This document shows positions 5,567 to 61,137 of a stretch of 64,000 nucleotides of DNA, piece by piece. Positions within the stretch are counted from its first letter, which is position 1; each line of letters begins with the position of its first letter. The stretch spans positions 30,717 through 94,716 of the forward strand of contig CAVTDB010000010.1 in NCBI GenBank assembly GCA_963733375.1, given 5' to 3'. The stretch is from Nitrospirota bacterium (GTDB lineage Bacteria > Nitrospirota > JACRHJ01). Both the position numbers and the translations under genes were made by a program. The notes beneath the pieces are model-generated. The model did not search any database and was not told the DNA's origin. It saw nothing but the letters and a program-made list of their open reading frames with translations.

Positions 5567-5598
5567 CTCCCCCGCCTGAAGCCTCTCCTGAATAATTC

Positions 5599-5628
5599 TT
5601 GACTTATTTTTTAAAAAGCCTGTATAAT
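5599..5628 (+). promoter_or_regulatory. Sigma-70-like promoter for the two-component operon
   Basis: TTGACT-N18-TATAAT about 23 bp upstream of ATG 5652. Confidence 0.55.
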
Positions 5629-5651
5629 AGCGAAATTAAAGGCAAAATTGC

Positions 5652-8539: not shown

Positions 8540-8542
8540 GCC

Positions 8543-8914
8543 TCAGTTATAGTTTACTTCCACCTCCTCGGCCTCGGCCGATATCTCATCCTTAATATTG
8601 CACTTGGGGGTATAACGCTTGTAAAGAGCCTTGGCCGCGGCGTCGATGTCCTCCTTCGTGTAGAGATAGGCGAACCGGAACTGGCAACCCCCATCCTTTA
8701 ATTCCGCCGTGATGCAGGAGCCCTCCGCCGAAGTGACGTGCTCCAAAAGCCGCATCTTCAGGCTGTCCGCCTCGCCGACGTAAAAAGGCTTCAGGCTTCC
8801 ATCCTTCTGCATCTTCGAGATCTTGTAAATCCCGGATTTGTCATCCACCTTGCCCCGTATGACCTTTTCATCCACCGGAAAATATCCCTGCCAATCCAGT
8901 TGGAGCTTCCGCAT
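8543..8914 (-). CDS. Small GIY-YIG-like domain protein
   Basis: SGIYKI...FYVGEADSLKMRLLEH and C-terminal PKCN; own strong RBS. Confidence 0.55.
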   Translation of the reverse strand: MRKLQLDWQGYFPVDEKVIRGKVDDKSGIYKISKMQKDGSLKPFYVGEADSLKMRLLEHVTSAEGSCITAELKDGGCQFRFAYLYTKEDIDAAAKALYKRYTPKCNIKDEISAEAEEVEVNYN

Positions 8915-8983
8915 ATTTGCGCCTCCTCCTCGTTGTTCTTACTTAAAATTTATCACAGGAAGAGGAGCGGGGCAAGGAGGAGG

Positions 8984-10338
8984 CTAATTTATCACGCCCG
9001 CGTCTATGAGCAGGTTGAATTTCAGCACGGTATTAACGTCCGTACCATTCCTTATCTCCACCTCAGCCGCGTATTTCCTGACCGGCAGGTCAGTATCCGC
9101 CGTGGAGAGGCTGATCAACCCCGATCCGGTTGAGGGATTTGTCACATATGTGGTTATATCCCTCGGCGTAAGTGCGTATGTGATGTCCGCCGGCGTCGCC
9201 TTCGCCCCGAACCAGACCGTCCAGCCCGTCAAATCTTTCCCTATGGAATAAGGGATTGCCACCGAGTCCCCGCGCGTCACATGGACGTCCTTGCCCTGGG
9301 CGACAGTCTCATAGGACGCCGCGCCCTGGAACGGCAGTACAGTCACGTTCCCGGCGGCATTCCAGGCTCCCGTGCCATGCTTCGAGGAAAGGTACAAGTC
9401 GATGCTGGTAGAATTGACGTAGGCGTTGCTGCTTGTGAGCGTCCGTGCGCCGTTATTCCACACCGTTGATGCAACCGACGATGCTGAGGGTAAATTATTT
9501 AAAGATGTCTGCGAAGCTCGACTTGACACCTGCGCATCGAGGTTATTCAAACGAGAATCCGTGGCCAGCAGCGGATTCGTGGGAATGCTTTGAACCGTGC
9601 TCTTGAGGCCATGAACTCCCGCGCTGATATCGCTAAACGTCGGAAGCGTCGCTAACCACAGTACCGGCCGACATGCGGCTGGATATGGCCATGTCGAGAT
9701 TATTGAGCCTGCTGTCGGTGTATAGAAGCGGGTTCGTCGGAATGGCCGAGATATAAGTGTCGAGATAAGTAAGCCGGTGGTCGGTTGACAGCACCGGATT
9801 CGTTGGAATAGTTGCAGCCATAGTTGCAACTTTAGTGTTAGTAGTATGAACAATGCTCGTCATATTATTCCACGGTTGTACGCACGGCGACGAACGCCTG
9901 GGCCGCGCCTGACAGGTTGGCGCTTATCTCCGCGAACCGGGGGCCGGATGAAGCGTAATACGTGTCGATGTCATAGAGCCGGACCATCTCGGTGAACGTA
10001 CCGATCGCGGTGTTATTGTAGTAGTAAACCATCTTGTGGAAGCCGGGCGCGTTCGGGACTCGTGTAGCTGTGTAATCGCCGGTGGACTGGTTTCGAAAAT
10101 TCCACGACTGCACTATGGACGTACCATTCCTCCAACCCTTGACGGTGAACTTGGAAAGGTCGCAGTTCGTCCTGGGCGAGCCGTCCGCATTAAACATCTG
10201 GAACGCTTCGCTCATGGTCTTATTCACCGTGAAGTCGGCCAGCGCGCCAATCGAGAGCGTGAGCGTCAGGAGCAGCCCGGCCATGAAAAAATAGGTTTTC
10301 TGTCTTCGCTGCCGCTCTGGACAGGTAAGTCTTTTCAT
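8984..10338 (-). CDS. Signal-peptide protein with three IPTNPxLxTDxRLxxLD repeats and C-terminal BppU-like Ig domain (probably one gene with two indels)
   Basis: ORFs 9865-10338, 9633-9863 and 8984-~9640 join with single-base shifts; ATG overlaps the upstream TGA (ATGA); C-terminus DVHVTRGDS..DLTGWTVWF.AK. Confidence 0.55.
10294..10329. repeat. Single copy of the 35-bp host REP-like repeat
   Basis: ggttttctgtcttcgctgccgctctggacaggtaag is nearly identical to the copies at 36757 and 37121. Confidence 0.9.
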
Positions 10339-12659
10339 TTTATGTACCATTTCCCTTTCGCGTCGTCATAGACTGCATCCAACGGCGTGTTCAAAGTTGA
10401 CGTTACGGCGTTTGCGATGTTCCCGGAAGTGCCTGTGGAAAATACTCCGTCAGGGATGATGGTAATCTTACCGTGCCAGCCGGTCGCGGGAAGGTTGATA
10501 GTGTTGATTGTAGTCGTGCCGGTTACGTGAAACATCTGGCCGGTCGGCGTTATCGTGGACGCGCTGGCGACGGGGTCTCCCCATCCCGTGCTTATGAAAG
10601 GTACGGTCAGCACCTTCCCTGTCGGGTCGTAAACAAATCCCGAACTCTGCGTAAGGCTTACAGCAGAGTAATTGACCGGCTTTACCGAGAAATAGGTTAT
10701 CGTCGCGCTCGGAGTGCTTCCAGAAGCAACGATGCCGATATATTCAACCCTTGCCGCCGTGATTGTCTGCGTGAAAGTGCCTGTAGTGTTATGCCCCGTC
10801 GTGTATTGAGTCCCGCTCGCCGACCACAGTCCCGCCGATACGTACGTCCCGCTCGTTACGGCGGATATTGTAATCGTTATCTGATACGCTTGACCAGGAA
10901 CGCTATAAAGAATGGGGTGCGTATACGTCTCGCCGACCCCGCCGGAGTTGGACACGACCAGCGTCCCGTTACCTGGCACAGTCCAGCCGGTCACGGTTGA
11001 CCAATCACCTGGGGTTGCAAAATGCGGGTCCGGGTTCATCTCCGCGCCAATAATCGGCGTAGTCCCCGAAGATATATAAGTAACGCCGCCTGCCACGTTT
11101 AAAGCCGCCAAGTTGTCAAAGGGCGGCGCCGTCGTCACGGGAGAATAGGGCGGCCTGTAATTGAAATCGTCCCCCGCATATTGAGGGTTGTAGCCCTGGA
11201 TGAGTTTCGGTGCGTAGTTTATGGGCACATTCATCGAGGACATCAGGCCGAAGGAGGTAACGCCGCTCCAGTTCGTGAATGAGCCGGATGCTTTTGCGGT
11301 ATCCACCTTGATTGTCTGGGGTTTCGAGTCCTCTGTCCAGACCCAGCTTGAAGGGTTGCCGTTTGAATCCTTGGCCGTCAGCGTGAAGATGCCGTTCACC
11401 GTGTCGTGCCTGTAGCCCACCACCCTTTTTCCGACCGCCCAGGAGACAAGCTGTTGGAGCATCTTCCCGGCCTGGGTGAGATACGACGGATGAGCAGGGT
11501 TCACTGGTAATATGGCAGACCAGTCATGGTCCATGCCGTACATGAAAACCTTGTCGCACCCGGAGGCAAGGCCGGACAAAAACATCCGCGTGAGATACCC
11601 CGCCTGCTGTTTGGATGGCATGGGAGTTGCCGGGCCATAGTCTCCGCCAGACACGCCCAGGCCCGTTACTGCGTCGGTATAGGAGTTCCAGGTCGTCTCC
11701 GTATCCCATAAGGGAAGGCTTCCCACGCCGTATTTGAACATGACCGCCCGCACCCGGTCAGCGAGGTCAACCATGTCATCGGGTGGCCCTGAGACGTAGA
11801 GGTGATACCCGGCAACATCGATGGAGTTTAAAGCTCCGAGTGATTGAAGGGCGGAGAAATATGAGTCGAGCCACGAAATGCTTCCCGTCCCCGTACAGGA
11901 CGCGCTTACAATCTTCGCGGCGGGGTCAACGGCCTTTATCGCGGTGCTCGCCTCCTGAGTCAGAGCGGCAAGCTGGGTGGGCGTCCCAAGGTAATAACCG
12001 GGCGGTTCGTTCCATATCTCATACGCCTCTATCTCGCCCTTGTACCTTGTCGCCAATGCCGTGCAGAAGTTTTCCCAGTATTCCGGATGCGCGGGATCGG
12101 GCGTGTTGTAGTTGTAATATGCGGAGCCGGGGTTGCTGTCCGCCGCGCCCGCGACCGCCCAGGACGGAGGCTGTCCGAGCGTGAACGTTATCTCCATGTT
12201 GTTCGCTCTCGCCCACGCCACGTAAGCATCTAAATTAGTCCAACTGTAAACGCCGTTAGCGGTCTCGATTGCCTTCCATGTCAGGTTAGATTCCCATGTA
12301 TCCCACGTCCGCACGGAGCCCGCGGTATTAGCAAACCAGGGCGTAAGGGTCGTATTGCTGGAAAAGCGCGGGTGCGCGAAGTGCGTCCCGAAGAAGTCCA
12401 TCGTTATCGGCTGGTTGCTGTGGGTGTAAGCTGCTGTCTGACTGGCAAGACTCGACACAGTTGCATAACCGGGGCTATTGGTAATATTATGGCCGCCCAG
12501 GTTAATGTCAGCGTTCATGGGTTTAGTGCCCGCCAGATTCAAAAAAGTATTTACAATCTGTTGCATCGAGGGGCGGACAGGGCCATCGGCGGCAAGCGCC
12601 GCGGTAGCGCACCCGCCGACTATGCAAAGCATCGAAAGGATAAGAAGGTATTTTTTCAT
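10335..12659 (-). CDS. Signal-peptide clan-A glycoside hydrolase (GH5/GH39-like) with carbohydrate-binding and tail-fibre-like segments
   Basis: Signal peptide MKKYLLILSMLC...ALA; acid/base YEIWNEP; nucleophile LWDTET; YHLY; fibre-like GTKPMNADINLGGHNITN and VASASTITPTGQMFHVTGTTTINTI. Confidence 0.75.
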   Translation of the reverse strand: MKKYLLILSMLCIVGGCATAALAADGPVRPSMQQIVNTFLNLAGTKPMNADINLGGHNITNSPGYATVSSLASQTAAYTHSNQPITMDFFGTHFAHPRFSSNTTLTPWFANTAGSVRTWDTWESNLTWKAIETANGVYSWTNLDAYVAWARANNMEITFTLGQPPSWAVAGAADSNPGSAYYNYNTPDPAHPEYWENFCTALATRYKGEIEAYEIWNEPPGYYLGTPTQLAALTQEASTAIKAVDPAAKIVSASCTGTGSISWLDSYFSALQSLGALNSIDVAGYHLYVSGPPDDMVDLADRVRAVMFKYGVGSLPLWDTETTWNSYTDAVTGLGVSGGDYGPATPMPSKQQAGYLTRMFLSGLASGCDKVFMYGMDHDWSAILPVNPAHPSYLTQAGKMLQQLVSWAVGKRVVGYRHDTVNGIFTLTAKDSNGNPSSWVWTEDSKPQTIKVDTAKASGSFTNWSGVTSFGLMSSMNVPINYAPKLIQGYNPQYAGDDFNYRPPYSPVTTAPPFDNLAALNVAGGVTYISSGTTPIIGAEMNPDPHFATPGDWSTVTGWTVPGNGTLVVSNSGGVGETYTHPILYSVPGQAYQITITISAVTSGTYVSAGLWSASGTQYTTGHNTTGTFTQTITAARVEYIGIVASGSTPSATITYFSVKPVNYSAVSLTQSSGFVYDPTGKVLTVPFISTGWGDPVASASTITPTGQMFHVTGTTTINTINLPATGWHGKITIIPDGVFSTGTSGNIANAVTSTLNTPLDAVYDDAKGKWYIK

Positions 12660-12683
12660 TGTTCTCCTCTCCTGAATTGGAGA

Positions 12684-13079
12684 CTAAATTACGCCCTTCG
12701 CCCTGAGCGCCTGCACCGTGGCCGTAAGATAGTTGTCCACCGTGTTCCCGTCGAGGCCCAGCGCCGCGCCTATCTCGCTCACGTCGCCGGTAGTCGCCGA
12801 CGCAAGGGACTGGATGCCGGTGGCCTTCAGGTCCACAAGGATGCTGTCGAGTGCGGCCTGTGTCTTGTTGCCGGTCGAGGATGCCGCGCCCACGACCGCC
12901 TTGATGACAATACCCGGAAGCTGAGGCAGTTCCTTCGCTATAGCGGTAGATAGTATGTGCCATGCGACCGTCCCCACTTCCTGGATGTCGGCGAGCGCCG
13001 TCTTTTCCGCGTTCTGAAAAAAGCCCTTGATCTCCGTCAAAATGTCCTGCCCCGGATTCGCATTCACTTCCATCTTCAA
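12684..13079 (-). CDS. Hypothetical protein in phage-like operon
   Basis: 131-aa ORF coupled to the upstream ORF by TTGA overlap. Confidence 0.6.
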   Translation of the reverse strand: MKMEVNANPGQDILTEIKGFFQNAEKTALADIQEVGTVAWHILSTAIAKELPQLPGIVIKAVVGAASSTGNKTQAALDSILVDLKATGIQSLASATTGDVSEIGAALGLDGNTVDNYLTATVQALRAKGVI

Positions 13080-13228
13080 CCCCCTGATTCTCTTGATTGT
13101 AAAAGGGCCGCGAGAAATTTCGCTCCCATTTTGATTTCATTCCCCAGGCTTACCGGCTCCGGGGGGATTTCGCCCGAAAGCTCTTCCATCTCCAGAAAAG
13201 GAGCGGTATGTTCTTCTTCGCCGCTCAA
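13076..13228 (-). CDS. 50-aa acidic hypothetical protein; absent from ORF track
   Basis: Manual translation MSGEEEHTAPFLEMEELSGEIPPEPVSLGNEIKMGAKFLAALLQSRESGG*; 4-nt TTGA overlaps at both ends. Confidence 0.55.
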   Translation of the reverse strand: MSGEEEHTAPFLEMEELSGEIPPEPVSLGNEIKMGAKFLAALLQSRESGG

Positions 13229-13572
13229 ACGGTCTGCCCCATCGCCTTGGCCGCATCGGCGACTGTAGCGGCAGGCACTGCGGAGCCGAGCGCCTTGGCC
13301 ACGCCAGCCACGGATTCGGCTGACGTGCTGACGCCCATCTTATAGGTCTTGTGCATTATCCCCAGGCCTGTCAATCCCATGCCCACCAGTTTGAGGTCGG
13401 CCTGCCAGGATGTCGCTCCGCCTGGGAGTTGCAAGTCCGGGTATACCTTGCCTACGGCGACAACAACACCGTAGAGGACGAGGCACAGCGCCCCGATTTT
13501 AGTTTTGTACCCGCTTAAACGGCTCGCAGCCATTCCAGCAAACCAGTTCGCGAACCATTCTTTTATCATCAT
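13225..13572 (-). CDS. Holin-like membrane protein
   Basis: Two hydrophobic segments; GYKT...GLTGLGI.HK pattern; directly after the endolysin. Confidence 0.55.
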   Translation of the reverse strand: MMIKEWFANWFAGMAASRLSGYKTKIGALCLVLYGVVVAVGKVYPDLQLPGGATSWQADLKLVGMGLTGLGIMHKTYKMGVSTSAESVAGVAKALGSAVPAATVADAAKAMGQTV

Positions 13573-13584
13573 CTTTACCCTCCC

Positions 13585-14022
13585 CTAAGCTACCGTTTCC
13601 GTCCTCGCCTGAGCAAGCGTCAAACCCGGATGATACTCGAAATGCCCCAGGTCTCCCCTTACGCTTTTAAAATCGCCTCCCCATAAAAGGCCCAATGATT
13701 TTCCGATATTACCCGCCTCAGTATATTTGGGTGAGTTCCAGTTTATTTTCCCGCCCTCGACGACCGCTACATCGTACGCCCGCCTGAAGTTATGCCACGA
13801 GGACCCGGGGCGCGCATTGGTGACTTTTCTCCCGCCGTCCGGTCCCCTGCCAGTCTCGTAAAGCGCGGCTTGTTCCTGTAAAGTCCGGTATCCCTGGACC
13901 ACCACGAGGTCGATCCCGGCTTCACTGCATAAATCCAGGTGCCTCTGGGCGAGAGAGCGCAGTTCGGGAGTAAGGGCCGCCAGCATCTCCCGGTTCTTTT
14001 TTTCCTGTACATCCGTCATCAT
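13585..14022 (-). CDS. Endolysin, M15 family peptidase (L-Ala-D-Glu type)
   Basis: QGYRTLQEQAALY..GR, VTNARPGSSWHNF..AYD, WGGDF, DLGHFE. Confidence 0.9.
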   Translation of the reverse strand: MMTDVQEKKNREMLAALTPELRSLAQRHLDLCSEAGIDLVVVQGYRTLQEQAALYETGRGPDGGRKVTNARPGSSWHNFRRAYDVAVVEGGKINWNSPKYTEAGNIGKSLGLLWGGDFKSVRGDLGHFEYHPGLTLAQARTETVA

Positions 14023-14258
14023 TGCGCGAATATCCTATCAGCCATATTGTCCATTTTTGTTTCCATGCGCTCCAGCCTCTGGAGGACTTCGTCCCGCCAA
14101 AGCTCGTTATTGTGCCTGCACTCGGAGCGGGTGGTTTCGCAGTCGTGCTTACCCACGTACTTCTCCGGCGCCTGGTCCGCCGCCCTCATCGTGCGTGCGT
14201 AAAAGAACGCCAGTACGAACCCGATTGCGGCGGCCATTTCCTGCGTCAGCCAATCCAT
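14019..14258 (-). CDS. Small TM plus coiled-coil protein (holin-like or lysis-associated)
   Basis: N-terminal TM; YV...C...R..C; coiled-coil LERMETKMDNM; ATGA overlap with the endolysin. Confidence 0.5.
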   Translation of the reverse strand: MDWLTQEMAAAIGFVLAFFYARTMRAADQAPEKYVGKHDCETTRSECRHNNELWRDEVLQRLERMETKMDNMADRIFAQ

Positions 14259-14260
14259 CT

Positions 14261-16847
14261 CTATACCTCCCGGACGATAAGCCGTAAAAGGTCCGGCTTC
14301 TTTTTTTTAAAGCTGCCGGGAACCAGAGATACATCCTCCACAAAAAATTCCGCGCCCGAGAGTGAGAATGCGGCCGAAGGCCAATCAAACGAAATGACGT
14401 CTCCGCGCTCGACGCCAAAACAGTCGAGAAAAGTAAAAACAAGAACCCGCCTCTTCACGTCTTTATAGCGGGTGATAAAGAAATCCCGCAGGTCGGACGC
14501 CTCGGAGGCAAATGAAATAAAGTCAAAAAAGAAGGGACGCGAAGGTGTCATTTTCCCGAACCTGGAGGCGGAGGTCGGGTCTCCGCCGGATGGATAAAGC
14601 GCTGTCTGGGAACAGACGGATAAATAGCCCGCGGAGTTTGCGCCTTTACCAAAATCCCGCTGGTAGTGCAGGTCGAGAGCGTTTATCAGCTCGTCCCTTG
14701 CCGTACGGTAAACCTCCAGGCCATCTAACTGGACGAGTTCTTTCCCCAGGGTCAAGTCCGGGGACAGCGAACCGTTGGACAGGAATTTTATTTTTGCCGC
14801 GTATCCGTCGTGCTTGAGCGCCAGGCGCGACTGCATGCAGAGTTTCTCGATGAACTTAAACCCGCCGACCACCGTATCGATTACACCGGCAAACTTATAA
14901 CCTGCCGGCTATCGCGCCTGCCAGCGAAGAGCGGGCGGAGGCGAACGAGCCGTCTATTTCCGATGTCGGCGTGCCCAGGTAATTCGCGAGGAAATGACGG
15001 ATTACGTCCGCCGGGTTTTCTATCAGCGCGCCCGGCGTGCCTGTGATGCTCCCGGAGGCGTCGTCGAAATTGCCGTCCACGTCGCATGTAACCGTACCGC
15101 CGATCACATAATCCGCCGCCGATCTGCCGGAGAGGGCGACTCCGGTAGCAGGCGAGGCGCCGCCGTTATACGGCACGTAAGTCACCTCTACCCATTGCTC
15201 GAAAAATGCGGCTGACGCAACTCCGGAGTAATACGTGGCGCGGATGGACATACCGGAGAAATCGTTCCAGGAAACTGCGCCCGTCGCGGCGCGGGAGAGA
15301 GTCCCGGCGGTCTTGCACGTCTGCATCGACGAGCCGCCGCCCTGGACATACGCGCCGGCGAATATTCCCCCACGGATCGTGCTCCTGCCGACCCCGTTAT
15401 AGGTTGCCTGTCCGATTGCGGCGCAGAGTTTCGCGCCGACTATATATCCTTTATCCGTCGCCAGGAACGAGCGGACCGTGTCGATATAGCCGTCCGCGAC
15501 GATTATTGCGCCGAAAGCGCCCAGGTTCTTGTCGCACAGGGCAGCGGCGCTCCCGGCGGCGGGGGCGTCGAACAGGTCCTGGACCGCATCCTGAAAAACG
15601 GTCTCGGTCTGGGTTCGGATTATCGCGCCGGTATAACTCCCGGCAGCCATCGTCCTCCCTTCCACGCTCTGCACGTCGATATAATTAGAGCCGTTGCCGG
15701 TGATGTAGAAATAGTATCCGGCAGAATCCATGAACGCCATGCCCACATGTTCGTTCGCCGTCCACGCGGGGTTTACGGAGGCCGTCCAGCGCGTAGTCGT
15801 CGTCCTGCTCCCTTGTCCGCTCCACGAGGAGTCCGTGTGGGAATGGCTGCCTTCGCCGACGCTTAAATCCACCGCTTTTTCCAGTACGAATTTGTCGCTG
15901 AAGGAGAGCTTTGCCCTCCCGCCGCCGTCGTCCGTGGTGCGGGTAACTCCGGAGAGTACCCGTACGCCGCCGACATAGACGTCCCCGATGGACCGGACGG
16001 GATGCCCGGCCACAAGGTAATCGTAGGCGCTTTTTATCTCGAATACCTTCGCGCCCATCTTATGGGATGCGGCCGTTGTCCCGGCCGCGGCGCGAGAGAC
16101 GCCGGTCAGTATCTTCCCGGAGAGGCCGGTATAGCTTATTTGCTCCTCGCCCACCTGCAGCAGCCCCGAAGATGGAAACGCCATCTCACCGGGCGCAAGG
16201 GAGAGCTCGATACCCGCCGTCTGGGCCAGCGTAACGTCCGAGGCCAGCGTGGAGACCGCTCCGGCGGAGACCGCCGGGCATGGGACGCCGTTCACGGAGC
16301 CGTATATTATCTTTTCTATTTCACCGACCGCGTGAGGGTCCGCATCCGGCCAGGCGTCTCTGCTGATTACCGTGCCTACTGACCGGTCCCTGTCCTTGAA
16401 CGTCCCGGCCAGAGATAGCCTGACGGAACTTTCATCATAGGAGACGGAGGCCGACTTGGCCGTATATTTCGCGCCGGAGGATGGAGCGGAAATTTTAAAT
16501 TTCCCGACGGTCTCCTTGTCGGCATAATCCGTCCCCTCAAACCACAGGAACAGCTCGACCTCTGTATTTTCCGGGTCGCCTGATTCAATCAACGTTGAAA
16601 AAGGCGGGGTCGCCGAGTTGGCGACCTCGATCTCCATATCCGGGAGAGCGATTGAGAAAAGTCCCTTGCCGGCGGCGGCGGGCACGCCCCAGCCCGTGAC
16701 AAGACCCGAAAACGCCGGGCCGCCGCCCGGGGTTACGTCCCTGTCCGAGAGGAAGACATCGCCGCCCGCGAAATGAAAAACAGCGAGGATATAAGCAGGC
16801 GAACGTCCCGCCGCCGCCTGGGCAAAATTATCGTTCACTGTGCGCAT
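14261..16847 (-). CDS. Baseplate hub / tail-tip-like protein, ~860 aa (one apparent frameshift near 14890)
   Basis: IIYGSV..VPC, YLVAGHPV..I.DVYVGG, CDVDG, TGTPGALIENPADVIRHFL; C-terminal ERGDVI OB-like segment. Confidence 0.6.
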
Positions 16848-17269
16848 CAGCCGATTATCTCCTTCAGGAGCAGAGTACCCTCCCAGGCGCCGTCATCCGT
16901 GAGGGAGAATTCGAGCTTGTCCTGGCCGAATACCACGGAATGCGATTTCCCGAACGGGTCGGCGTACGTGAAACTCTTGCCCGACTGGCTGATGAACCAG
17001 TTGACGAGGCTCTGGCTGCCGGAGGCCTGGGCGCCCGCGGCGTAATCGAACCCGCCGTCGAAATCGGCCGCCGGAAGGCCGATGAAATTCAATGCGATAA
17101 GCATCGAGCTATTGCCCTTGCGGATGAAGATGTCTTCGCCGCCCTCGCTCTTTAAAGGGACGAGGCCCGGGTCCAGCGTAACCTTGCCCGGATAGCTGGG
17201 GTTCACGGAGAAGTTGAGCGCAGTCAAACCGACCGCGGTAAAGGAAGCGCCAGGCATTAAAACCTCCAT
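16847..17269 (-). CDS. Distal-tail (Dit/gpM-like) protein
   Basis: 140 aa; C-terminal FTYADP...V.F....F......W.GTL.L.E pattern; directly upstream of the hub. Confidence 0.45.
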   Translation of the reverse strand: MEVLMPGASFTAVGLTALNFSVNPSYPGKVTLDPGLVPLKSEGGEDIFIRKGNSSMLIALNFIGLPAADFDGGFDYAAGAQASGSQSLVNWFISQSGKSFTYADPFGKSHSVVFGQDKLEFSLTDDGAWEGTLLLKEIIG

Positions 17270-17271
17270 TT

Positions 17272-17703
17272 TCAGCTTTCGAGCGTGACATACCGGACCA
17301 GGTAATAATTCGCGGACGCATATGCGAAACCGTCGTGCGCGGTCACCGGTGATTCGCCCTCAAGCCTGGGGGGATAGGTCCCCACGCCTAAGTCCACGCC
17401 GAGCAGCAGAGGGCGCACGTCCTCCAGGAGTTTCAGCGGCTCCGGAGTTACCCCGTAACGCGCGACGGCGGTGACGCCAAACGCTATCCGCTCCACGTAA
17501 GCCTGATATGGGCCCGGCTTGCATGTTGACGACAGGAAAGAGACCGCGATCGCAGGCAAAGCCGGGGCCGTGGCTAAAAGCTCCTCGGGCGGGAGAGTAT
17601 CGCTGACAAAGACAGAGCGCGCCGGGCCGCCTCCGGACATGAGCATGGGCGACAGGGCAGAGACTACCGCATCCAGCAACTCTTTTCGCGTATGGATCGC
17701 CAT
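17272..17703 (-). CDS. Mu gp37-like (DUF1834) tail terminator / connector
   Basis: LPAIAVSF, LLEDVR.LL.G.DLG; position after gp36. Confidence 0.55.
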   Translation of the reverse strand: MAIHTRKELLDAVVSALSPMLMSGGGPARSVFVSDTLPPEELLATAPALPAIAVSFLSSTCKPGPYQAYVERIAFGVTAVARYGVTPEPLKLLEDVRPLLLGVDLGVGTYPPRLEGESPVTAHDGFAYASANYYLVRYVTLES

Positions 17704-17720
17704 TTATATCTCCGCCTCCA

Positions 17721-18113
17721 TCAGAAGTCCTCCATCGTGTCCCGGCTGAAGCCCCTTGGGCAGCTTGAGAATGACGGCAGGGAGGCGAAAGAAGGCAATG
17801 TAATAGTGCCGTCCGCCAGCCGCCCCAGCGTTTCGAGCGCCCTCGCGTACGAGTCCTTTACCTCCGCCGGGACCGTCGCCTGGCGGAGGTAAAGGTTGTA
17901 CAGCGCTATATCCGCCGTCAGCTTTTTCACGAGCTGAGGCGGGTCGATAAGCGGCGTCTGGTACTGCTTTGAGAGTGATGCGTCCACGACCGCCTGTGCG
18001 GAAGAAATGGCGTCGTCTGCCCGCGCGGTATTTATGGAGCCGGTGGACTCGTCGTCCGTAAGACGTACTAATACGTCCTCCGGGGCAGCTAAATCGGAGA
18101 CGGATATGTACAT
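17721..18113 (-). CDS. Mu gp36-like (DUF1320) head-tail connector
   Basis: MYISVSDL...LVRLTDD, AQAVVDASL...Y..PL, DIALYNLY.R, Y..A...L..LADG.I.L, FSRD. Confidence 0.85.
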   Translation of the reverse strand: MYISVSDLAAPEDVLVRLTDDESTGSINTARADDAISSAQAVVDASLSKQYQTPLIDPPQLVKKLTADIALYNLYLRQATVPAEVKDSYARALETLGRLADGTITLPSFASLPSFSSCPRGFSRDTMEDF

Positions 18114-18114
18114 A

Positions 18115-19002
18115 TTAAACCGTCCCGTCGGACCCGTACGCCAGCTGCCAGAGGCCATAGCCCGCGTTGTCTCTGGAGTCCACGCCGAAAACATATTCCT
18201 TCTTCATGAACGTGCCTTCGTCATCGGGGGTGTCTTTCGAGACGAATACGGGCGCTTTCCGCCTCTGGAAGATGAACGGCTTCACGGCCTTTTTCGTATC
18301 CAGGAGGTACCAGGCCGTGGGGCTGCCTGAGAGATACGGGGCGACGACCAGGTCGGCCGATTCCTTATAGATATTCGAACCGCCGTTTACGTCCAGGTCC
18401 GCCCTGAGTATCTCCAGCGCCGCCTTCTCGAGCTGTGGCGGGACGACGAGCAGGTCCGGCACCGCGTTCAGGGGCTTTCCGTGCTCATCCGTGAGCGACA
18501 TCATCTGCGCGCGCGCGGCGGCATAGCTGTCGGACGTGAGCGCGGCCGTGCTCTTGTTGGACTGGGTGGACGAGCCGTTCGGGTGCGCCGTGTCGAAGAA
18601 GGGCCTGCCGTCGTAACACGGATTGACAAAGCCGCCGGCTAAGAGGTCGAAGACCAGTTCGTCCGGATGCGTCGCGGATGCGTCGGCAAGGGCACGGACC
18701 ATGGGCGTATATATGCCCACCGCATCGTCCTCCACGTCGTTTCTGTCAAGGGCCACGGTGGCTTCCCAGTCACGGTTCTTTATGGTGTACGAGTAGGCGG
18801 AGAGGTTCTGTATCATACGCTCGCCCACCCATTCGCGCATCTTGGGCACGCGGCCCAGCCAGTTGTACTGCTCTTCACGGGAGGTGGAAGGTACTTCGGT
18901 CGCGACGCGGGGGTACAGCACGGAGGCGTTATCGAAGACCTCCTTGAAGATCGCGGAGAAGCCGCGGTAAAGAGAAGATAAATTTGCCTGGTTGATTATC
19001 AT
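18115..19002 (-). CDS. Mu-like major capsid protein gpT
   Basis: VPSTSREEQYNWLG..PKMREWVGER, YTIKNRDWEATV..DRNDVEDD, CYDGRPFFDTAHP, LLVVPPQLE, KPFIFQRRK, GYGLWQLAYGSDG. Confidence 0.95.
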   Translation of the reverse strand: MIINQANLSSLYRGFSAIFKEVFDNASVLYPRVATEVPSTSREEQYNWLGRVPKMREWVGERMIQNLSAYSYTIKNRDWEATVALDRNDVEDDAVGIYTPMVRALADASATHPDELVFDLLAGGFVNPCYDGRPFFDTAHPNGSSTQSNKSTAALTSDSYAAARAQMMSLTDEHGKPLNAVPDLLVVPPQLEKAALEILRADLDVNGGSNIYKESADLVVAPYLSGSPTAWYLLDTKKAVKPFIFQRRKAPVFVSKDTPDDEGTFMKKEYVFGVDSRDNAGYGLWQLAYGSDGTV

Positions 19003-19011
19003 TTTTCCTCC

Positions 19012-19421
19012 TTATATTCTGCTGATGTCTATATAGACGCTGGTCGCGGAGACGTACTCGGAAATGACCCCGCATTTGATGTGGTTGGTGGACCCGCCGG
19101 TGAGGCCGACGTTCTGGTCGTCCAGGGCAAAGACGGCGTCGCCCGCGTTTGAAAGCGCCATCCCGGAGGCGGCCAGGTTGAAACAGCCGCGCCTCCACAC
19201 CTCTACCTGCAAGCTTCCGCTTGCGCCGGCGGAGTTGTCCGCATACGCTCTGGCAATGCCCATGAACTTAAGCCCCGCCGTGTCCGAAGCCGGTACGGCA
19301 TAACCGTCCGCGCCGATGCAGACCATCCCCCCGGCATAGATTACCGCCCCGCCTTTTACCGGGTATGAGCGTACTTCCCTTCCTTCCTTACCGTGTCCCT
19401 GTCATTTGTCAGTGCCGACAT
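19012..19421 (-). CDS. Capsid decoration/cement-like protein (one apparent frameshift)
   Basis: MSALTNDRDT...PVKGGAVIYAGGMV....GYAVPA.DTAGL.F.G.A; the typical gene before gpT in Mu-like prophages; RBS GGAGGT. Confidence 0.7.
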
Positions 19422-19431
19422 CGATACCTCC

Positions 19432-20513
19432 TTAGTTGGTTGTGAATTTAAATACCGGCTGCTTTACGTCCGGACCGAAGTTCAGCGCCGTTAGCGGGCG
19501 CACTAAATCGCGGTTTATGGTGCGGGCGAGCGACCTGGCGTCCGCGCGGACGATGTCCATCCGCACCCCGTCATGCACCAGCTCCGGCGGCAAGGCTCCC
19601 GCTGCTCCCCACTTCCGTCGTGAGGGTCTGGCCCAGCACCGCCTTTGAAATCTCCTTGTTCATCACGTCTACCAGGTCCTTATAAGGTCCGCCGGACCCG
19701 CTCTTCGCCGCCTCGATGAACTGGATGCGGGTGCTCTCCGATATTATCCCGGCCGCGTCCGAACCCAGGTTGGTCACGGCTTCCATGAGCGCGTCCTTGT
19801 CCTCTTTCGACGCCGACGGTGAGTAAACGCCAAGGCGAAGTGGCATCCCGAATACCTCGCAGAAAGATACCCAGTCCTTGAGGGCATAGTTCTTGAACAG
19901 GTATATCCAGGAGAGCGTCCGGAGAAGGCCTCCCCGCTCCGGGTAATCCGCGCCCGCGCGGTACACGTGCACCATGAACTTCGACGGCGGAAGCGGGATG
20001 CCATATACCGGCTCGGCATCCGTCAGAAGGAGCGGCCGCTCGGAGGGGCCGTCCTGGGAGAGAAAGGTGAAGCGTTTTTGCGGCCTCTTCTTCAGGCTCC
20101 GCGGGACGAGGAAGTCATGGTCCAGTTCCCAGAGTAATCTCCGATACGGAAAATCCCTTGCCGACGGCATCCATCAAATCCGCCAGCGACTCGTCGAAGT
20201 TATCGAGCACTGGAGAGGCAGTCGGAAACGAACGACGCCGCTTCTGTTTCGGCCGGCCGCCGCCGCTTCCCGGGACTATCTCCCAGGGACAGCCGGCGAC
20301 GGAGAGCTTCCGGGTCTGGAGGCAGGAGAACAGATGCGCGTCCTTCTGCTCCATCTCGGAGAAAAGCTCCGCCTGCATGTTTATATAACCAGCATCGGCG
20401 TCCCGTAGTATCCGGGACAGCTTCCCTGGAGTCAGGCCGGACGAGGGATAATCGGACCAGCGGTCCCTCAGCGACGCGGTGGCGATTTCTTTTGTATATT
20501 CTTTTTTGTTCAT
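19432..20513 (-). CDS. Mu gp29-like portal (DUF935), about 360 aa, apparent frameshifts
   Basis: YPSSGLTP.KL..IL..ADAG, EMEQKDAHL...LQTRK, DWVSFCEVFGMPLRLG.Y, EISKAVLGQTLTT, VH..VR.DIV.AD; stop TAA at 19432. Confidence 0.9.
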
Positions 20514-21383
20514 TTAATTTGAGTTCGCGTAGCGGAAGAAGGTTTTGTTGTCCAGTCCCAGCAGGCTGTTGACCCGCGCCTGCGAAGGCTCCGGGAGGTC
20601 GTCCGCCGGGAGTCCGTCGAACGGCGCGCTTTTAGCCGCCTTGCCGCAGAACTCGGCAAAGCCCTCCGGGTCCACGTCCGCATACGAACGCGCCCACGGA
20701 AGGAGCGCGGGGGTAATCTTCCCGTTGGATAGCGCCTGGCGTACCATCGCTTCCGTCTTATACTTCTTGAGAGTCGCCTTCAGCGCCAGGTGCTCCGTCT
20801 CCGTCACGAAACCGGACGGATGGATAAGCGACTCGGTTTTTTCCTTCACCGCGTCCGCCTCTGCATCCTCCGGGAGGTCCAGGAACTTCAGCACCTCCAT
20901 ATACAAACTTTTGAAATCTCTCTGCATGGAGTTTACGACCGGGGCCATGCCGTCTATTGCGGGCAGGTTCGTGAGAGCCGCGCCCAGAAGCTCAACGGCT
21001 CGCCCGTCTTTCTTGCGGACGAGCACGACCGGCGAGAGGTAGCGGTACTCCCGGTTCCTAAGGTATTCCTTCGCGCGGTCCGTCCACTGCACCTTCGCCC
21101 AGAGCCCTTCTGACCCCTTGTCCACCAGTTCCTTTATCCAGCCGGCCGCCGGGGCCTCGGAGCCGGATAAGCTCTGGTGCTCGTAGTCGATTACCAGGTC
21201 GGTATTCGAATCGGCAAAGGCTTTCAGTATCAGCCCCTTCGCCTCCTCGTCCACATTGAACTGCATCTTCCCTTTAGGCGATACCTCGCCCGACGGCAGG
21301 ATCTGCACCTCTTCCGGCACGTCGTTGCCGGACAGGTCAAGCCCGCACTCCAGCGTAAACGAAAGCTTCTCTGAAGACTCCAA
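20514..21383 (-). CDS. Mu I-like prohead protease/scaffold
   Basis: LVIDYEHQSL, APAAGWI..L, GLWAKVQWTDRA..YL...EYRYLSPV, AALTNLPA, GKITPA...WA. Confidence 0.92.
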   Translation of the reverse strand: MESSEKLSFTLECGLDLSGNDVPEEVQILPSGEVSPKGKMQFNVDEEAKGLILKAFADSNTDLVIDYEHQSLSGSEAPAAGWIKELVDKGSEGLWAKVQWTDRAKEYLRNREYRYLSPVVLVRKKDGRAVELLGAALTNLPAIDGMAPVVNSMQRDFKSLYMEVLKFLDLPEDAEADAVKEKTESLIHPSGFVTETEHLALKATLKKYKTEAMVRQALSNGKITPALLPWARSYADVDPEGFAEFCGKAAKSAPFDGLPADDLPEPSQARVNSLLGLDNKTFFRYANSN

Positions 21384-21398
21384 TATATACCTCCTTTT

Positions 21399-22991
21399 TT
21401 AGAAACCCTTTTTCTTGCCGCGCCTTGAAAACCCTTCGTACTCCACTCTTTGCGGCGCGCGTACAGGGAACTCGTATTCGATGAAATATCCTATGGCGTC
21501 GGTGATGTGCTCGTCGCCCTTCGTCTTGTCCAGGATGGACGTGCCGTCTTTCCAGGCGGTCCGCTCAAAGGAGCGGATACTCTCGCGGCAGGCGGAGGAG
21601 ATTACCAGTTCGGGCGGTCCGCCGGACAGTACCTTATTTACCGCGTTCACCCTGTCCCTGACATGCGGTGAAGAATTCCTCGCCCGCACTTCAAAGCCGT
21701 TAGTCGAAAGCACGGCGAAATCCGACGTCGCGCCGGGGAGCCCGGCTGTCTTTCTCGCCCGGCCGGTCGGGTCCGGGTAGGCGGCTATCGCAATATCGCC
21801 GTACCGGTCCCTCGCCGCCTCGCATAGTTCCCACGTATTGGAGGACCGGATGACAATTTCGTCCACAACCCTCACCTCTTTACCCGCGACCTGTATGAAC
21901 GCGGCGTGGAGCGGGTCTACGTTAAAGTCCACCGCCATCGTAAGCGGATAAGCCGGGTCGTATGCCAGGCCTTCCCTGACGTGCCTTTCGCGGGAGAACT
22001 CCGGATAGACCCTGCCCGCATGCGGGTTCACGAACTCGCCCGATACGTATTGCCGGGCAATGTTCGCTCCGTAAGCCTCAATCAAGTCATCCGCATAGTC
22101 CGGCGGGAGGTGGACGTTTTCCTTCGTGCTTGCGGTGATGAGGCGGTAGCCGCGCTTTCGCTTCTCCACGAACTCCTCGAAAAGCCAGTTATAGCCTTCG
22201 GGAGTGGTGGTAATGAACGCGCGTAGCCATTTTGCTTCCGGATGCCTGAGGCGCGAAATCAGCACCTCCCACGCGGCGCGCGAGACAAGCGCCCCCTCGT
22301 CGATTCCGACCCACGCGAGGCTTGGCCCTTTAAGCCGCTCCGGCGAATCCGCCGAGCGGAACATGACCTTCGAGCCCCACGGGAGAAACAGGTTCGAGTT
22401 CGAGCTGAAGCCACTTGTACTTGATGCCCGCCCGGTCCAGTATCTCCAGGAAAACGGGCAGGGTCGCGTCCTGCAACATCCCGTAAGTCGGCGCGACGAC
22501 CATGCCGGGAAGTCCCCGGTTTATGACTGAGAGCCTTATCGCCTCATGGCATCCGGAGAACGTCTTGCCGGAGCCGTACCCGCCGACGTAGGCTTTGTAT
22601 TTCGAGCGGGAGCGGTGGAAGGCCGCCTGGGCCGGGAGCATCCTGTATTTTATGCCGAGTTCGCGGAAGCTCAATGTCTGTGCGCCCCCGTCAGGGTCTT
22701 CCCACCGGACAACCATCTCTTCCGGCCACTGTTCCTGTTCCTGCTTATGGTCGGCAAGGCCCAGGACGCCCCGTTCTCCTAAGACCGCTTCCTTATAAGT
22801 GGAGACCAGCGACTTCATGTCCGATACCTTCAAGGAGGCTTCGGCTTTCTTTTTCCCCATGCCTTTCGGCGCGGGCAGGAGGCTCGTCGGACAACAGGGA
22901 CAGAGCGCGAAGAGCCGCGTTCTGAAACCTCCTGAAGCCCGTCAGGTGCCGCTCTGTTTATACTGGCGTCGTCGTTTTTCGGCTTTGTCAT
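21399..22991 (-). CDS. Terminase large subunit preceded by an in-frame TerS-like segment (apparent frameshifts)
   Basis: Walker A GGYGSGKT; RSADSPERLKG; Walker B VGIDE; TTTPEG; nuclease AVDFNVDP, YPDPTG, HITDAIGY; upstream ATG 22991 with RBS. Confidence 0.88.
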
Positions 22992-23000
22992 CGCGGACTC

Positions 23001-23294
23001 CTAAGCTATTTCCTGAATGAACCACTGAGGCGGCGCGAGGACTTCCATCCAGCGCCAGCCGTCTCTTTTTACCATCAGGCCGAGCTTGTGCTCATTCCAA
23101 AGAGACTGGGCCGCATCAGACAGTGCCGGCGCGGCCGGGTCCGCGGCGCTTTGCTCCGGGGCCTGGGGCGCAAAAAAATATTTCCCGCAGATAGGGCAGC
23201 GGGCGGTGACGTAATTTCTTATCAATACCCTGGAACCGCATTTATCGCAGCCGACCCCTGCCCCCGCGTGAGGGCTACGCTCCGTCGTGCTCAT
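23001..23294 (-). CDS. Zinc-ribbon hypothetical protein
   Basis: CDKCGS...CPICGK; RBS AGGAGG. Confidence 0.6.
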   Translation of the reverse strand: MSTTERSPHAGAGVGCDKCGSRVLIRNYVTARCPICGKYFFAPQAPEQSAADPAAPALSDAAQSLWNEHKLGLMVKRDGWRWMEVLAPPQWFIQEIA

Positions 23295-23402
23295 AGTGGC
23301 GCCTCCTGTAGTTGCTTAATTGCTTCCCCATTTCAGGGCCTTCGTTCTTTGCGCGTCCGCTTCGCTCTATCCGGAGCTTTGCGGGCGGTTTTTCTTGTTT
23401 CC

Positions 23403-23500
23403 CACTATATGCCGGATTTGTACGGCAAGATTCATGCGCAATCCCCTGGAAGAAATGCGCCTCATTTGGCCTTCACTATATGCCGCTTTTGTACGGCAAG
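23403..23500. promoter_or_regulatory. Two 27-bp direct repeats, each with internal TGCCG-N8-CGGCA dyad
   Basis: cactatatgccggatttgtacggcaag (23403-23429) and cactatatgccgcttttgtacggcaag (23474-23500), 25/27 identical. Confidence 0.7.
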
Positions 23501-23842
23501 CTTGGCCCTGGCCCGGCCGACATAGCTCTGGACGGTTGAGCGCGAGACGCCGAGTGCGGCGCTCGCATCGGCATAGGAGAGGCCGTCGGCTATGAGCATG
23601 AGCGCCTGCCGCTCGGAGGGCGAGAGCGCGCCCAGGTCGATCCTCGGAGCGGCGGCCTTCGTCCGCGACACGTTCCATTCCGAAAGCGAATGCAAATCGG
23701 CCGCAAGCGCCAGGTCCGCCGGCGACATCAGCACCTCCCTGTCCGAGTTCCGCCCGTCTTCGACGGCCGGGATGGTTTTCTTGACAGATAAACAGATTTC
23801 GATGCAGTTTTTAAATTCGGTACAATCACGGCAAGTTTTCAT
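23462..23842 (-). CDS. Regulator with N-terminal Cys4 motif and C-terminal sigma-70 region-4/LuxR-type HTH
   Basis: CRDCTEFKNCIEIC; LSPSERQALML.ADGLSYADASAALGVSRSTVQSYV.RARAKL. Confidence 0.8.
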   Translation of the reverse strand: MKTCRDCTEFKNCIEICLSVKKTIPAVEDGRNSDREVLMSPADLALAADLHSLSEWNVSRTKAAAPRIDLGALSPSERQALMLIADGLSYADASAALGVSRSTVQSYVGRARAKLAVQKRHIVKAK

Positions 23843-23959
23843 AGACGCCTCCTTTTCTTGCGGGGAGGATACGACGGAATATCGGGAGACGTCTTCTGCA
23901 GGCCTTGAGAAAATACTTTAGGCGTAGGTCTTAGGAGAAGGGGTTACGGGAAACGCTTG

Positions 23960-25171
23960 TTATACGGAAAGCAGGTCCTTGCGTGCGGATACCAGCAGGA
24001 CGGAATATGTCACGAGGCAGACTATCGCCCCGGCGGCGACGGCATGGGGCGTGCCGGCGTAGTGCGCGAGCGTCCCGATGATTAGGTTCCCGATGGGGAC
24101 GAACCCCAGGAACACCAGGACGTACAGGCTCATCACCCGGCCCCGGAGCTCGTCGGGGACCTCTTGCTGGATCGCGGTGTTCACGGTGGCGAGCTGCGTT
24201 ATCATACCCCAGCCGATGACCATAAGCAGGGCGTATGACAGAAGCGGCACGCGGGAGAACGAGAAGCCCAGGATCGCCAGAGACGAGATGAACGCGGCGA
24301 GAAAAGCGGTGAGGCCCCTCCTGCCGGACCCGCCGAACGTGGCCAGACTTAAGGCGCCGATTAACGCCCCAACGCCCGCGCAGCCCATGAGGACGCCGAG
24401 GCCCTTTGCGCCGATATGCAGGATGTCCCGCGCGAAGATGGGCATAAGAGCGATATACGGGATTGCGAAGAGGCTCGTGATGGCGACCATCAGGGTGAAA
24501 TAGAGGACGACGGGCGTCTTGCGCACGTAGATAAGGCCTTCGTGCAGCTCCTTAAGCACCGGGCGCGGCTTGGGCTTTTCCTCCGGCCTGTCAAGGCGCA
24601 TCATGCCCAGCATTATAATTATGGCGACGTATGAAAGGGCGTTTATATAAAAGCAGGCGGCTATGCCCACGGCGCTTATCAGGAGTCCGGCGATGGCGGG
24701 TCCTATTATGCGCGCGCCGTTGAAAACCGCGGAGTTCAGCGCGATGCCGTTCATAAGGTCCTCGCGCCCGACCATCTCTATGATGAACGACTGCCTGCCG
24801 GGGACGTCGAAGGTGTTTACCACGCCCAGCAGCCCGGCGATGACCAGCACGTGCCAGAGCTGGACCTGGCCCAGGCTCACCATGACGCCGAGCGCGAGCG
24901 CAAGGGCCAGCGAGAGCGCCTGGGTAAGGAGCAGGAGCCTCCTTTTGTCCACCCTGTCCGCGACCACCCCGCCCAGAAGCGAGAAGAACAGGATGGGGAG
25001 CGAACTCATCGCCTGTACCAGCGCGAGATAGAATGCCGAGTTGGTAAGCTTCAGCACCAGCCAGCCCTGGGCGAGCGACTGCATCCATGTGCCGACAAGC
25101 GAGATGGCCTGGCCGGATAAGAAAAGGCGGAAGTTCCTGTGCTTTAGCGCGGTGAAAGTTCTGTACTTCAT
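23960..25171 (-). CDS. MFS transporter (MFS_3/DUF894 type)
   Basis: ALKHRNFRLFLSGQAISLVGTWMQ, GGVVADRVDKRR, LRGRVMSLY. Confidence 0.92.
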   Translation of the reverse strand: MKYRTFTALKHRNFRLFLSGQAISLVGTWMQSLAQGWLVLKLTNSAFYLALVQAMSSLPILFFSLLGGVVADRVDKRRLLLLTQALSLALALALGVMVSLGQVQLWHVLVIAGLLGVVNTFDVPGRQSFIIEMVGREDLMNGIALNSAVFNGARIIGPAIAGLLISAVGIAACFYINALSYVAIIIMLGMMRLDRPEEKPKPRPVLKELHEGLIYVRKTPVVLYFTLMVAITSLFAIPYIALMPIFARDILHIGAKGLGVLMGCAGVGALIGALSLATFGGSGRRGLTAFLAAFISSLAILGFSFSRVPLLSYALLMVIGWGMITQLATVNTAIQQEVPDELRGRVMSLYVLVFLGFVPIGNLIIGTLAHYAGTPHAVAAGAIVCLVTYSVLLVSARKDLLSV

Positions 25172-59999: not shown

Positions 60000-60029
60000 T
60001 TGACAGAAAGCTTTCGTCTTAGGTAATAT
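60000..60029 (+). promoter_or_regulatory. Sigma-70-like promoter of tRNA-Gln
   Basis: TTGACA-N18-TAATAT 12 bp before the tRNA. Confidence 0.55.
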
Positions 60030-60041
60030 AGCGGCTCGTAT

Positions 60042-61130: not shown

Positions 61131-61137
61131 CGGAACC

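Follow-up and report, generated by a model that had tools for sequence, protein, structure and literature searches.

Two translationally coupled genes, not a fused terminase, in a phage-derived structural cluster of Nitrospirota

The window analysed here is a stretch of 64,000 nucleotides (nt) from contig CAVTDB010000010.1 of the Nitrospirota assembly GCA_963733375.1, and it carries a phage-derived structural cluster whose terminase genes occupy the minus strand at 21399-22991. An earlier note on this DNA had described there a segment resembling a small terminase (TerS-like), devoid of a DNA-binding helix-turn-helix (HTH) domain and fused in frame to the large terminase (TerL). The fusion is not real. 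The region is shown here to hold two separate, translationally coupled genes, the first for a protein of 105 amino acids (aa), a candidate small terminase, and the second for TerL. The HTH-less partner of TerL belongs to an apparently undescribed, lineage-wide and vertically inherited phage-derived cluster in Nitrospirota. Taken as a whole, an explanation that combines coupled genes, a minimal TerS and a particle cluster owned by the host accounts best for the data, and it is advanced with moderate confidence.

In all nine relatives with a readable junction (G001-G004 and G006-G010) the upstream segment is an open reading frame (ORF) of its own, 89-114 aa long and in a frame that differs from that of TerL, and in all nine a stop codon separates the two parts. 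Stop and TerL start share the four bases TTGA in seven of them (G001, G002, G006, G007, G008, G009 and G010) and GTGA in one (G004), while in G003 the small-protein ORF and the TerL ORF overlap by ~20 nt; the TerL orthologues start with TTG or GTG. The open frame that crosses both genes in the window is due to one extra A at 22675, which converts CAG ACT TGA into CAG ACA TTG A.., so that the stop is lost and both genes fall in one frame. Without that base the sequence reads CAG ACT TGA, with the stop overlapping the TTG start of TerL (TTGA). TerL relatives of at least 57% identity, 424-467 aa long where complete, begin MSFRELGIKYRMLPAQ..., exactly at the TTG that follows '...GGAQT' of the window, and the intact ones, of 424-438 aa, start MSFRELGIKY. 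A search with the fused frame against 1.84 billion representatives gave 822 hits; the 150 listed all align only from query residue 65 or beyond, and most of those listed begin around residue 90, that is, at the TerL start.

The peptides quoted in the earlier note were found by three-frame translation on the minus strand of 21399-22991, for which the ORF listing gives 22991-22830 (53 aa), 22860-22330 (176 aa) and 22364-21399 (321 aa). The first frame, starting from the ATG at 22991, yields the peptide MTKPKNDDASIN, and the second frame ERHLTGFRRFQNAALRAL. The third frame, open from 22941 to 22333, reads ...KVSDMKSLVSTYKEAVLGERGVLGL...EEMVVRWEDPDGGAQT-LSFRELGIKYRMLPAQ...GGYGSGKT, a run also written ...KVSDMKSLVSTYKEAVLGERGVLGL...EEMVVRWEDPDGGAQTLSFRELGIKYRMLPAQ...GGYGSGKT, and the last 320 residues of the terminase return to the first frame and end at the TAA at 21399-21401. 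The window does contain, as its letters stand, a run without stops that leads into the Walker A motif, but several frame changes are needed for the whole reading, and the TerS-like gene as given is spread across three frames. The repair of the N-terminus made by hand in the earlier note was right, as it reproduces intact orthologues, for instance MTKPNNEDASINERHLTGFRRFQNAALRAL in G002. Removal of the extra base at 22406/7 leaves a TerL of 424 codons.

The four frame breaks (22955, 22889/90, 22675 and 22406/7) all appear as single-base insertions in alignments with the same-genus genomes G002 and G001. Metagenome contigs from four independent short-read runs, 90-99% alike to the window and of depth under 7, are without the extra base wherever they cover it, in 4/4 runs at 22406 and in 2/2 at each of 22675, 22890 and 22955, and no other indels were seen in the covering contigs along the 1.9 kb. 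Isolated 1-nt indels with respect to G002 number 17 in the 15,300 bp of the cluster (1.1 per kb), and 10 in 7,190 bp and 14 in 7,546 bp of the host flanks (1.4 and 1.9 per kb). The source genome is 81% complete in 26 contigs, versus 94-97% for same-genus relatives. Together these alignments provide strong evidence, short of proof, that the breaks are single-base insertion errors of an unpolished, indel-rich assembly, and neither pseudogenisation nor a natural fusion. Some points weigh on the other side. The metagenome contigs derive from low-depth relatives and are not reads of the source sample, as the share of sampled words reached at most 0.38 in any sequencing run; a mutation at 22675 truly specific to this strain would be unlikely; and G002 carries indel errors too, so that some of the indels scored with respect to the window may belong to G002.

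Similar splits occur elsewhere in the window. A host MqnA-like gene (menaquinone/futalosine pathway) at 25181-26087 is divided into two ORFs by a single extra base at ~25636; the gene is full-length in G002, G008 and G004, and in G003 it runs into the contig end. Within the cluster, the genes for the portal (19432-20513), an 861-aa protein (14261-16847) and a 441-aa protein (8984-10350) are split by isolated single-base indels located at ~19582, 20134, 14903 and 9663-9871, and they are single ORFs in G002. The splits in these three genes look like the same assembly-error pattern as those in the terminase genes.

A genuine 1-nt insertion in this strain, leading to a single-chain TerS-TerL, would agree with the frame open from 22941 to 22333, which spans parts of both the small protein and TerL, and with the fact that the covering contigs come from relatives in another sample. 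Such a fusion is nevertheless highly improbable. Three more single-base insertions in the same 1.6 kb break both genes, and no functional fused protein results from the sequence as given; the four insertions are absent from G002, from G001 and from every covering contig; host genes carry the same kind of indel at the same density; and no fused homologue of the small protein was found among the matches listed for longer proteins, a search that is itself weak evidence. A natural fusion could also arise in a fraction of translations by a programmed ribosomal frameshift at the overlap, given that TerL lies in the -1 frame with respect to the small gene, with a 4-nt overlap, and a -1 slip before the stop would join both products. 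This was rejected because no slippery heptamer is conserved: the bases preceding the stop vary by genus (GCACAGACTTGA, GAAAAGGATTGA, ACCGAGGATTGA, AGCCTCGATTGA and ATGCTTCGTGA). A TTG or GTG start preceded by a purine-rich stretch is the simpler explanation, and frameshifting retains hardly any probability. Hence, two coupled genes remain the reading adopted here. A natural single-chain TerS-TerL would have been remarkable; the one seen in the window is an assembly artefact that should not be propagated into annotation.

The small protein belongs to a family of 58 protein clusters of 52-131 aa, none of them with a Pfam domain, whose few named members are all 'hypothetical protein' from metagenome-assembled genomes of Nitrospirota. 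The ratio of non-synonymous to synonymous substitution rates (dN/dS) of the gene is 0.17-0.27 in pairs with a dS below 1.1, and on these values the 105-aa ORF is judged to be a real gene under purifying selection. Seven columns are invariant across 60 sequences (R14, H15, Q23, Y65, A68, E72 and W96), and a further class of 12 is nearly invariant across the 60 homologues. The AlphaFold2 (AF2) monomer model built with the homologue alignment (mean predicted local distance difference test, pLDDT, 72.9) contains two long helices, at residues 6-37 and 55-75, connected by a variable and often Lys-rich loop, whereas the C-terminal tail is disordered or unmodelled. This tail contains the conserved motif W88-P-E/D-E, three hydrophobic residues, R and W96, followed by acidic residues. 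Since the protein has 105 aa and two long predicted helices, with ~12 residues ahead of the first conserved helix, it leaves no room for an N-terminal HTH domain, and no HTH family was matched by the orthologues in Pfam or PHROGs. The absence of this domain, proposed in the earlier note, is thereby borne out.

Whether this protein is a small terminase was weighed on several kinds of evidence. Its gene has the position of a TerS, with the stop overlapping the TerL start in eight of nine relatives and an overlap of ~20 nt in the ninth. The assignment is based on this position and the 4-nt coupling to TerL, on the size and the hairpin-plus-tail architecture, on the lack of any other recognisable TerS in the cluster, and on the published descriptions of the small terminases of gene transfer agents (GTAs), and these tip the balance slightly in its favour. 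On present analysis it is somewhat more probable than not that the 105-aa protein serves the element as a minimal small terminase of 'GTA type'. As to the term 'TerS-like' of the earlier note, similarity does not sustain it, there being no Pfam, PHROG, NCBIfam, PDB-sequence or specific fold match; what stands is the idea, drawn from position, overlap, size and helical architecture.

A number of results count against this assignment. None of the nine orthologues matches a TerS family in Pfam or PHROGs at E values up to 1, an NCBIfam scan of the 105-aa protein returned nothing, and the PDB sequence-profile search of its family gave only chance-level hits. Comparisons by hhalign with Kagunavirus TerS and Mu gp27 gave probabilities below 1% (0.15% for Kagunavirus). 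The Foldseek check proposed in the earlier note gave no support: the best E value in the PDB was 0.91, with no matches at 0.001 or below, and in BFVD it was 0.24. No terminase is present among the structure matches listed for the model. Two further conserved small proteins, a Cys-rich HTH protein and a Zn-ribbon protein, are encoded just upstream in the same tightly packed operon, and either may be the true TerS or provide the DNA recognition. In the structural comparison with VIA-align across 48,161 chains the best Z was 8.2, and the 546 chains with Z of at least 5 are all generic helical hairpins, so the fold comparison of the model is taken as uninformative and not as negative. A language-model look-up placed T5_Terminase_small (0.88), DUF1804 (0.88) and Phage_Mu_Gp27 (0.85) as the nearest named clusters, with all scores below the 0.9 line, which makes them a weak lead only.

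The 105-aa protein could instead be another head or packaging accessory, the function of TerS being carried out by the Cys-rich HTH protein, by the Zn-ribbon protein or by both, or there could be no TerS at all, as reported for CcGTA. The missing similarity to any TerS family or structure would fit such an arrangement, as would the organisation of the HTH, Zn-ribbon, 105-aa and TerL genes in one compact unit, overlapping or abutting in G003, G004 and G007, and the presence in phage Mu of a winged-HTH gene (gp26) directly before its TerS, according to the record annotation. However, the profile of the HTH protein matches transcription regulators or sigma factors in all of the best 60 of 63 PDB matches, and a terminase in none of them, and in NCBIfam it comes nearest to a 'positive control sigma-like factor' (29.7 bits versus a cut-off of 136). 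Moreover, the gene coupled directly to TerL (TTGA) is that of the 105-aa protein, just where the closest phages have their annotated TerS, and its size, helical hairpin and tail agree with the published description of the 'GTA-type' TerS. An accessory role is accordingly regarded as unlikely, if the least unlikely of the alternatives, and the small-terminase assignment is retained.

Under this assignment, packaging could be initiated as follows. The two-helix hairpin of the 105-aa protein would oligomerise, and its conserved tail (WPEE-hydrophobic-R-W-acidic) would dock on TerL. The HTH-less protein would switch on the nuclease and ATPase of TerL at packaging initiation with no pac site being read, and TerL would then fill heads by a headful mechanism. 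The latter is plausible from the relatives of TerL, as the nearest ones among phages and solved structures include Sf6 gp2 and the TerLs of Kagunaviruses. If the 105-aa protein is the small terminase, it would add an independent case to the proposed link between loss of the TerS DNA-recognition domain and indiscriminate packaging (PMC6854486, PMC11841831) and would offer a very small model TerS. A gene partner of TerL that is a sequence orphan, strongly conserved, of ~100 aa and without a DNA-binding domain is in itself of moderate value.

Several known systems can be compared with this arrangement. The small terminase of RcGTA is described as beginning with a coiled coil and having no DNA-binding domain (PMC6854486), and the putative TerS proteins of other GTAs are likewise described without one (PMC11841831). 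RcGTA gp1 (rcc01682) of Rhodobacter capsulatus is, like the 105-aa protein, small and almost entirely helical, with its gene directly upstream of TerL. RcGTA also resembles the Nitrospirota cluster in being a structural-only cluster of ~15 kb inherited with the host chromosome. They differ in that RcGTA gp1 is described with three helices, while the 105-aa protein is predicted to have two and an extended tail, a comparison made by description only. The head genes are of Mu type in the Nitrospirota cluster and of HK97/RcGTA type in RcGTA, and oligomerisation, TerL binding and necessity are reported for gp1, the first two being predicted for the 105-aa protein. The gp16 protein of the Aeromonas phage 44RR, of the T4 family (PDB 3TXS; described in PMC6854486), shares with the 105-aa model an antiparallel two-helix hairpin core, but its N- and C-terminal segments are missing from the 105-aa protein or shortened there. 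The likeness is generic, equal scores being obtained with hairpins from many unrelated proteins (best Z 8.2).

Among phages, the Kagunaviruses (Guernseyvirinae), such as the Escherichia phages Schulenburg and BUCT789, have a TerS gene directly upstream of TerL whose stop overlaps the TerL start by 4 nt, as here. Their TerS is of 181-194 aa and annotated as P22 gp3-like, versus 105 aa here, and the hhalign probability between them is the 0.15% given above. Phage Mu has a portal, a protease/scaffold and a capsid of the same type as the cluster (Portal_Mu, Mu-like_Pro and Mu-like_gpT), but its gp28 and gp27 show no significant similarity to TerL and the small protein of the cluster. The gene order also differs, being TerL, protease and portal in the cluster versus TerL, portal, F, G and protease in Mu, and no transposase family was found among the cluster ORFs scanned. 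Particles of the PBSX-type defective prophages of Bacillus package random host DNA under the control of the sigma-like factor Xpf. The only NCBIfam hit of TerL is to the PBSX-family TerL model, and the best one of the first gene of the cluster is to the 'positive control sigma-like factor', both far below the cut-offs (67.6 versus 105 bits and 29.7 versus 136 bits), and the PBSX head genes are unrelated to those of the Nitrospirota cluster.

TerL matches Terminase_6N (PF03237) with 58.4 bits (cut-off 22) and Terminase_3 (PF04466) with 45.8 bits (cut-off 23.2), and Terminase_6C with 17.0 bits, below the cut-off of 22.6. Its C-terminal piece matches Terminase_6N (E 1.7e-11), Terminase_3 and, weakly, Terminase_6C, as well as phrog_2 of PHROG, 'terminase large subunit'. 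Profile hits in the PDB are the large terminases 5oe8/5oea, 4zni and 4idh (Sf6 gp2). On these profile scores TerL is classified as of the Terminase_6N/Terminase_3 type. The closest phage TerLs are those of Kagunaviruses (33% identity over 95% of the protein), and the only NCBIfam hit is the TerL model of the PBSX family (TIGR01547), with 67.6 bits, below the cut-off of 105. No meaningful similarity to Mu gp28 was found by BLASTP, the best E value being 0.014 over a trivial stretch of 82 columns with 24% gaps; Mu gp28 itself matches no Pfam family. Since this non-Mu TerL stands beside a portal, a protease/scaffold and a major capsid protein of Mu type (Table 1), the head module is mosaic. On both counts, the dissimilarity to gp28 and the mosaic head, the earlier note was correct.

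The TerL tree joins the 19 TerLs with 57% identity or more in a single clade (support 99/97). The group was defined by identity to the query and the tree contains no reference terminases of known packaging class, so that the clade shows clustering alone. A whole-genome search detected the TerL gene in 10 of the 11 further genomes from the same family and in none of 29 genomes from 12 other families of the phylum. In Chlorobium, the region upstream of a distant relative of TerL codes for an amidase and a membrane protein, and no TerS can be seen there. Terminase_2 was not found in the source genome, which is 81% complete, and Phage_Mu_Gp27 had no match in the genome in a search whose control gave no match either.

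Table 1. Features of the phage-derived cluster and of its terminase region in the window
Feature	Position	Strand	Basis or remarks
Small-terminase candidate (TerS-like) gene	22671..22991	-	ATG 22989-22991; 105 codons and TGA after removal of three extra bases
Large terminase (TerL)	21399..22674	-	TTG start 22672-22674; TAA stop 21399-21401; Walker A GGYGSGKT
Single extra base, first frame break in the TerS-like gene	22955..22955		Alignment; 2/2 covering runs without the base
Single extra base, second frame break in the TerS-like gene	22889..22890		Alignment; 2/2 covering runs without the base
Single extra A, abolishes the TGA stop of the TerS-like gene	22675..22675		2/2 covering runs without the base
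Single extra base, splits TerL into two ORFs	22406..22407		4/4 runs without the base
Mu I-type protease/scaffold	20514..21383	-	Pfam Mu-like_Pro, E 6.1e-62
Mu gp29-type portal (Portal_Mu)	19432..20513	-	Three ORFs in the window via single-base indels; intact 359 aa in G002
Cement/decoration protein	19012-19326	-	Phage_cement_2, E 1.1e-4
Mu gpT-type major capsid protein	18115-19002	-	Mu-like_gpT, E 4e-104
4-Cys Zn-ribbon protein, 97 aa	23001..23294	-	Trp-rich C-terminal half; 9 nt upstream of the TerS-like gene
First cluster gene, 126 aa	23462..23842	-	N-terminal CxxC...C...C and C-terminal sigma-70 region 4/LuxR-type HTH
Whole phage-derived structural cluster, ~15 kb	8543..23842	-	Host sigma-54 response regulator/histidine kinase on one side, MFS transporter/MqnA-like on the other

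The two proteins encoded upstream of the TerS-like gene, the Zn-ribbon protein and the 126-aa HTH protein, are both conserved in all nine relatives. The HTH and Zn-ribbon genes overlap or abut in three genera (G003, G004 and G007), and with the TerS-like and TerL genes they make up a compact unit of four. The N-terminal motif of four cysteines in the HTH protein is invariant, and from its profile matches this protein is likely a transcription activator, a candidate for one dedicated to the cluster. The AF2 model of the Zn-ribbon protein (pLDDT 55.8) is too poor for a fold search, and an Atlas look-up of that protein gave nothing above 0.87. A promoter and terminator scan of 21300-24100 remained at chance level. 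At ~23287, between the HTH and Zn-ribbon genes, the window is without ~130-200 nt that are present in G002 and G001, where they code for a short ORF rich in Lys; in genus g5 the HTH protein (215-217 aa) bears a comparable Lys-rich tail as a fusion, and the metagenome contigs likewise diverge from the window at 23284-23290. In G003 (L009), short repeats that translate to ...SSRERGLGVRG... flank the first genes of the cluster at ~45-355 and 1000-1100 and may be a repeat or the remnant of a mobile element.

In G002 the cluster begins with the HTH, Zn-ribbon, TerS-like and TerL genes, followed by those of the Mu-I protease, the portal, the cement protein and the capsid. After the capsid come three small proteins, the 861-aa protein (with weak tail-protein hits) and an M15 peptidase (endolysin-like), and the cluster ends with small ORFs, a 778-aa protein with a PslG-like glycoside hydrolase domain, and proteins of 441 aa and 123 aa. 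A scan of the 13 cluster ORFs of G002, which covered ORFs from ~90 aa upwards, detected no family of integrases, transposases, repressors or replication proteins, and the HTH, Zn-ribbon and TerS-like genes, scanned both in the window and in the loci, matched no family for integration, replication or lysogeny control. The same flanks, MqnA and the major facilitator superfamily (MFS) transporter on one side and the sigma-54 regulator and kinase on the other, surround the cluster in four genera (G002 with the window, G008, G004 and G003). The GC content of the cluster is the same as that of its surroundings.

The cluster has diverged as its host flanks have. Between G002 and G008 its genes have a dS of 0.8-1.4 and a dN/dS of 0.09-0.21, and the flanking host genes a dS of 0.75-1.4 and a dN/dS of 0.07-0.25. 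The capsid protein retains 81-87% identity even in comparisons of the most distant genera, versus 65-73% for the flanking MFS gene. The TerS-like profile was detected in 11 of 12 genomes of the class-level lineage, which in this set comprises a single order and family, and in none of 289 other Nitrospirota genomes sampled; the twelfth, G011, is 75% complete and has only a weak portal match of 55 residues. A scan of IMG/VR for the small protein in free phages yielded a single contig (12.9 kb); its genes follow the order of the cluster, and it is counted as this element itself, not as a separate phage. The cluster is therefore considered GTA-like, in that it combines a fixed site, vertical inheritance and purifying selection with an absence of genes for replication, integration and lysogeny control among the ORFs scanned.

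An ordinary or decaying prophage, with the frameshifts as pseudogenisation, would also consist of phage structural genes, and the TerS-like, TerL, portal, 861-aa and 441-aa genes are all split in the window. Nonetheless, indels are no denser in the cluster than in the flanking host DNA, relatives carry intact copies of the genes, which evolve under purifying selection at a host-like dS, the element occupies the same chromosomal site in four genera and is present in 11 of 12 genomes of the lineage, and no integrase or replication genes were found among the cluster ORFs scanned. This possibility is consequently given very little weight. The 10-15 kb cluster could well be a host-owned, vertically inherited particle system (GTA-like or PBSX-like), neither an active nor a decaying prophage, and this is estimated, on comparison of the genes, to have about an even chance. 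The estimate is tempered by dS values near saturation, and particle formation, packaging and transfer by the cluster are predictions from its genes.

A broader scenario is put forward more tentatively. A class-level lineage of uncultured Nitrospirota from peat, soil and wetland, represented by metagenomes only, may have domesticated a phage with a Mu-type head into a GTA-like system, with packaging via a new minimal family of HTH-less TerS, an origin independent of the alphaproteobacterial GTAs and control by a Cys-rich activator with a sigma region 4. A literature search for 'gene transfer agent' together with 'nitrospir' gave, among the matches listed, none with both terms in the title or abstract. 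If the cluster makes particles, it would extend GTA-like systems to a phylum without any in the literature searched. The interest, a moderate one, lies in a cluster of structural genes only that is fixed throughout a Nitrospirota lineage and maintained there by selection.

The distal part of the cluster, with the fibre and lysis genes, varies between genera. In the window, a 774-aa protein at 10335-12659 (L014:8821-11154) has a PslG-like domain of the GH39/GH10-like kind (PDB 4zn2, E 3.9e-10). The PslG-like protein, which lies in this variable part, is absent from the cluster of G008, G004 and G003, and from its domain it may be an exopolysaccharide-degrading fibre or spike. In G004 (L027, ~4700-14720) the cluster is of ~10 kb and ends after the 861-aa gene, and nothing recognisable as an endolysin or fibre gene stands between that gene and the host regulator gene. 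At the far end of the window, along 60001-64000, the GC content falls from ~0.56-0.58 to 0.40 over the last 4 kb.

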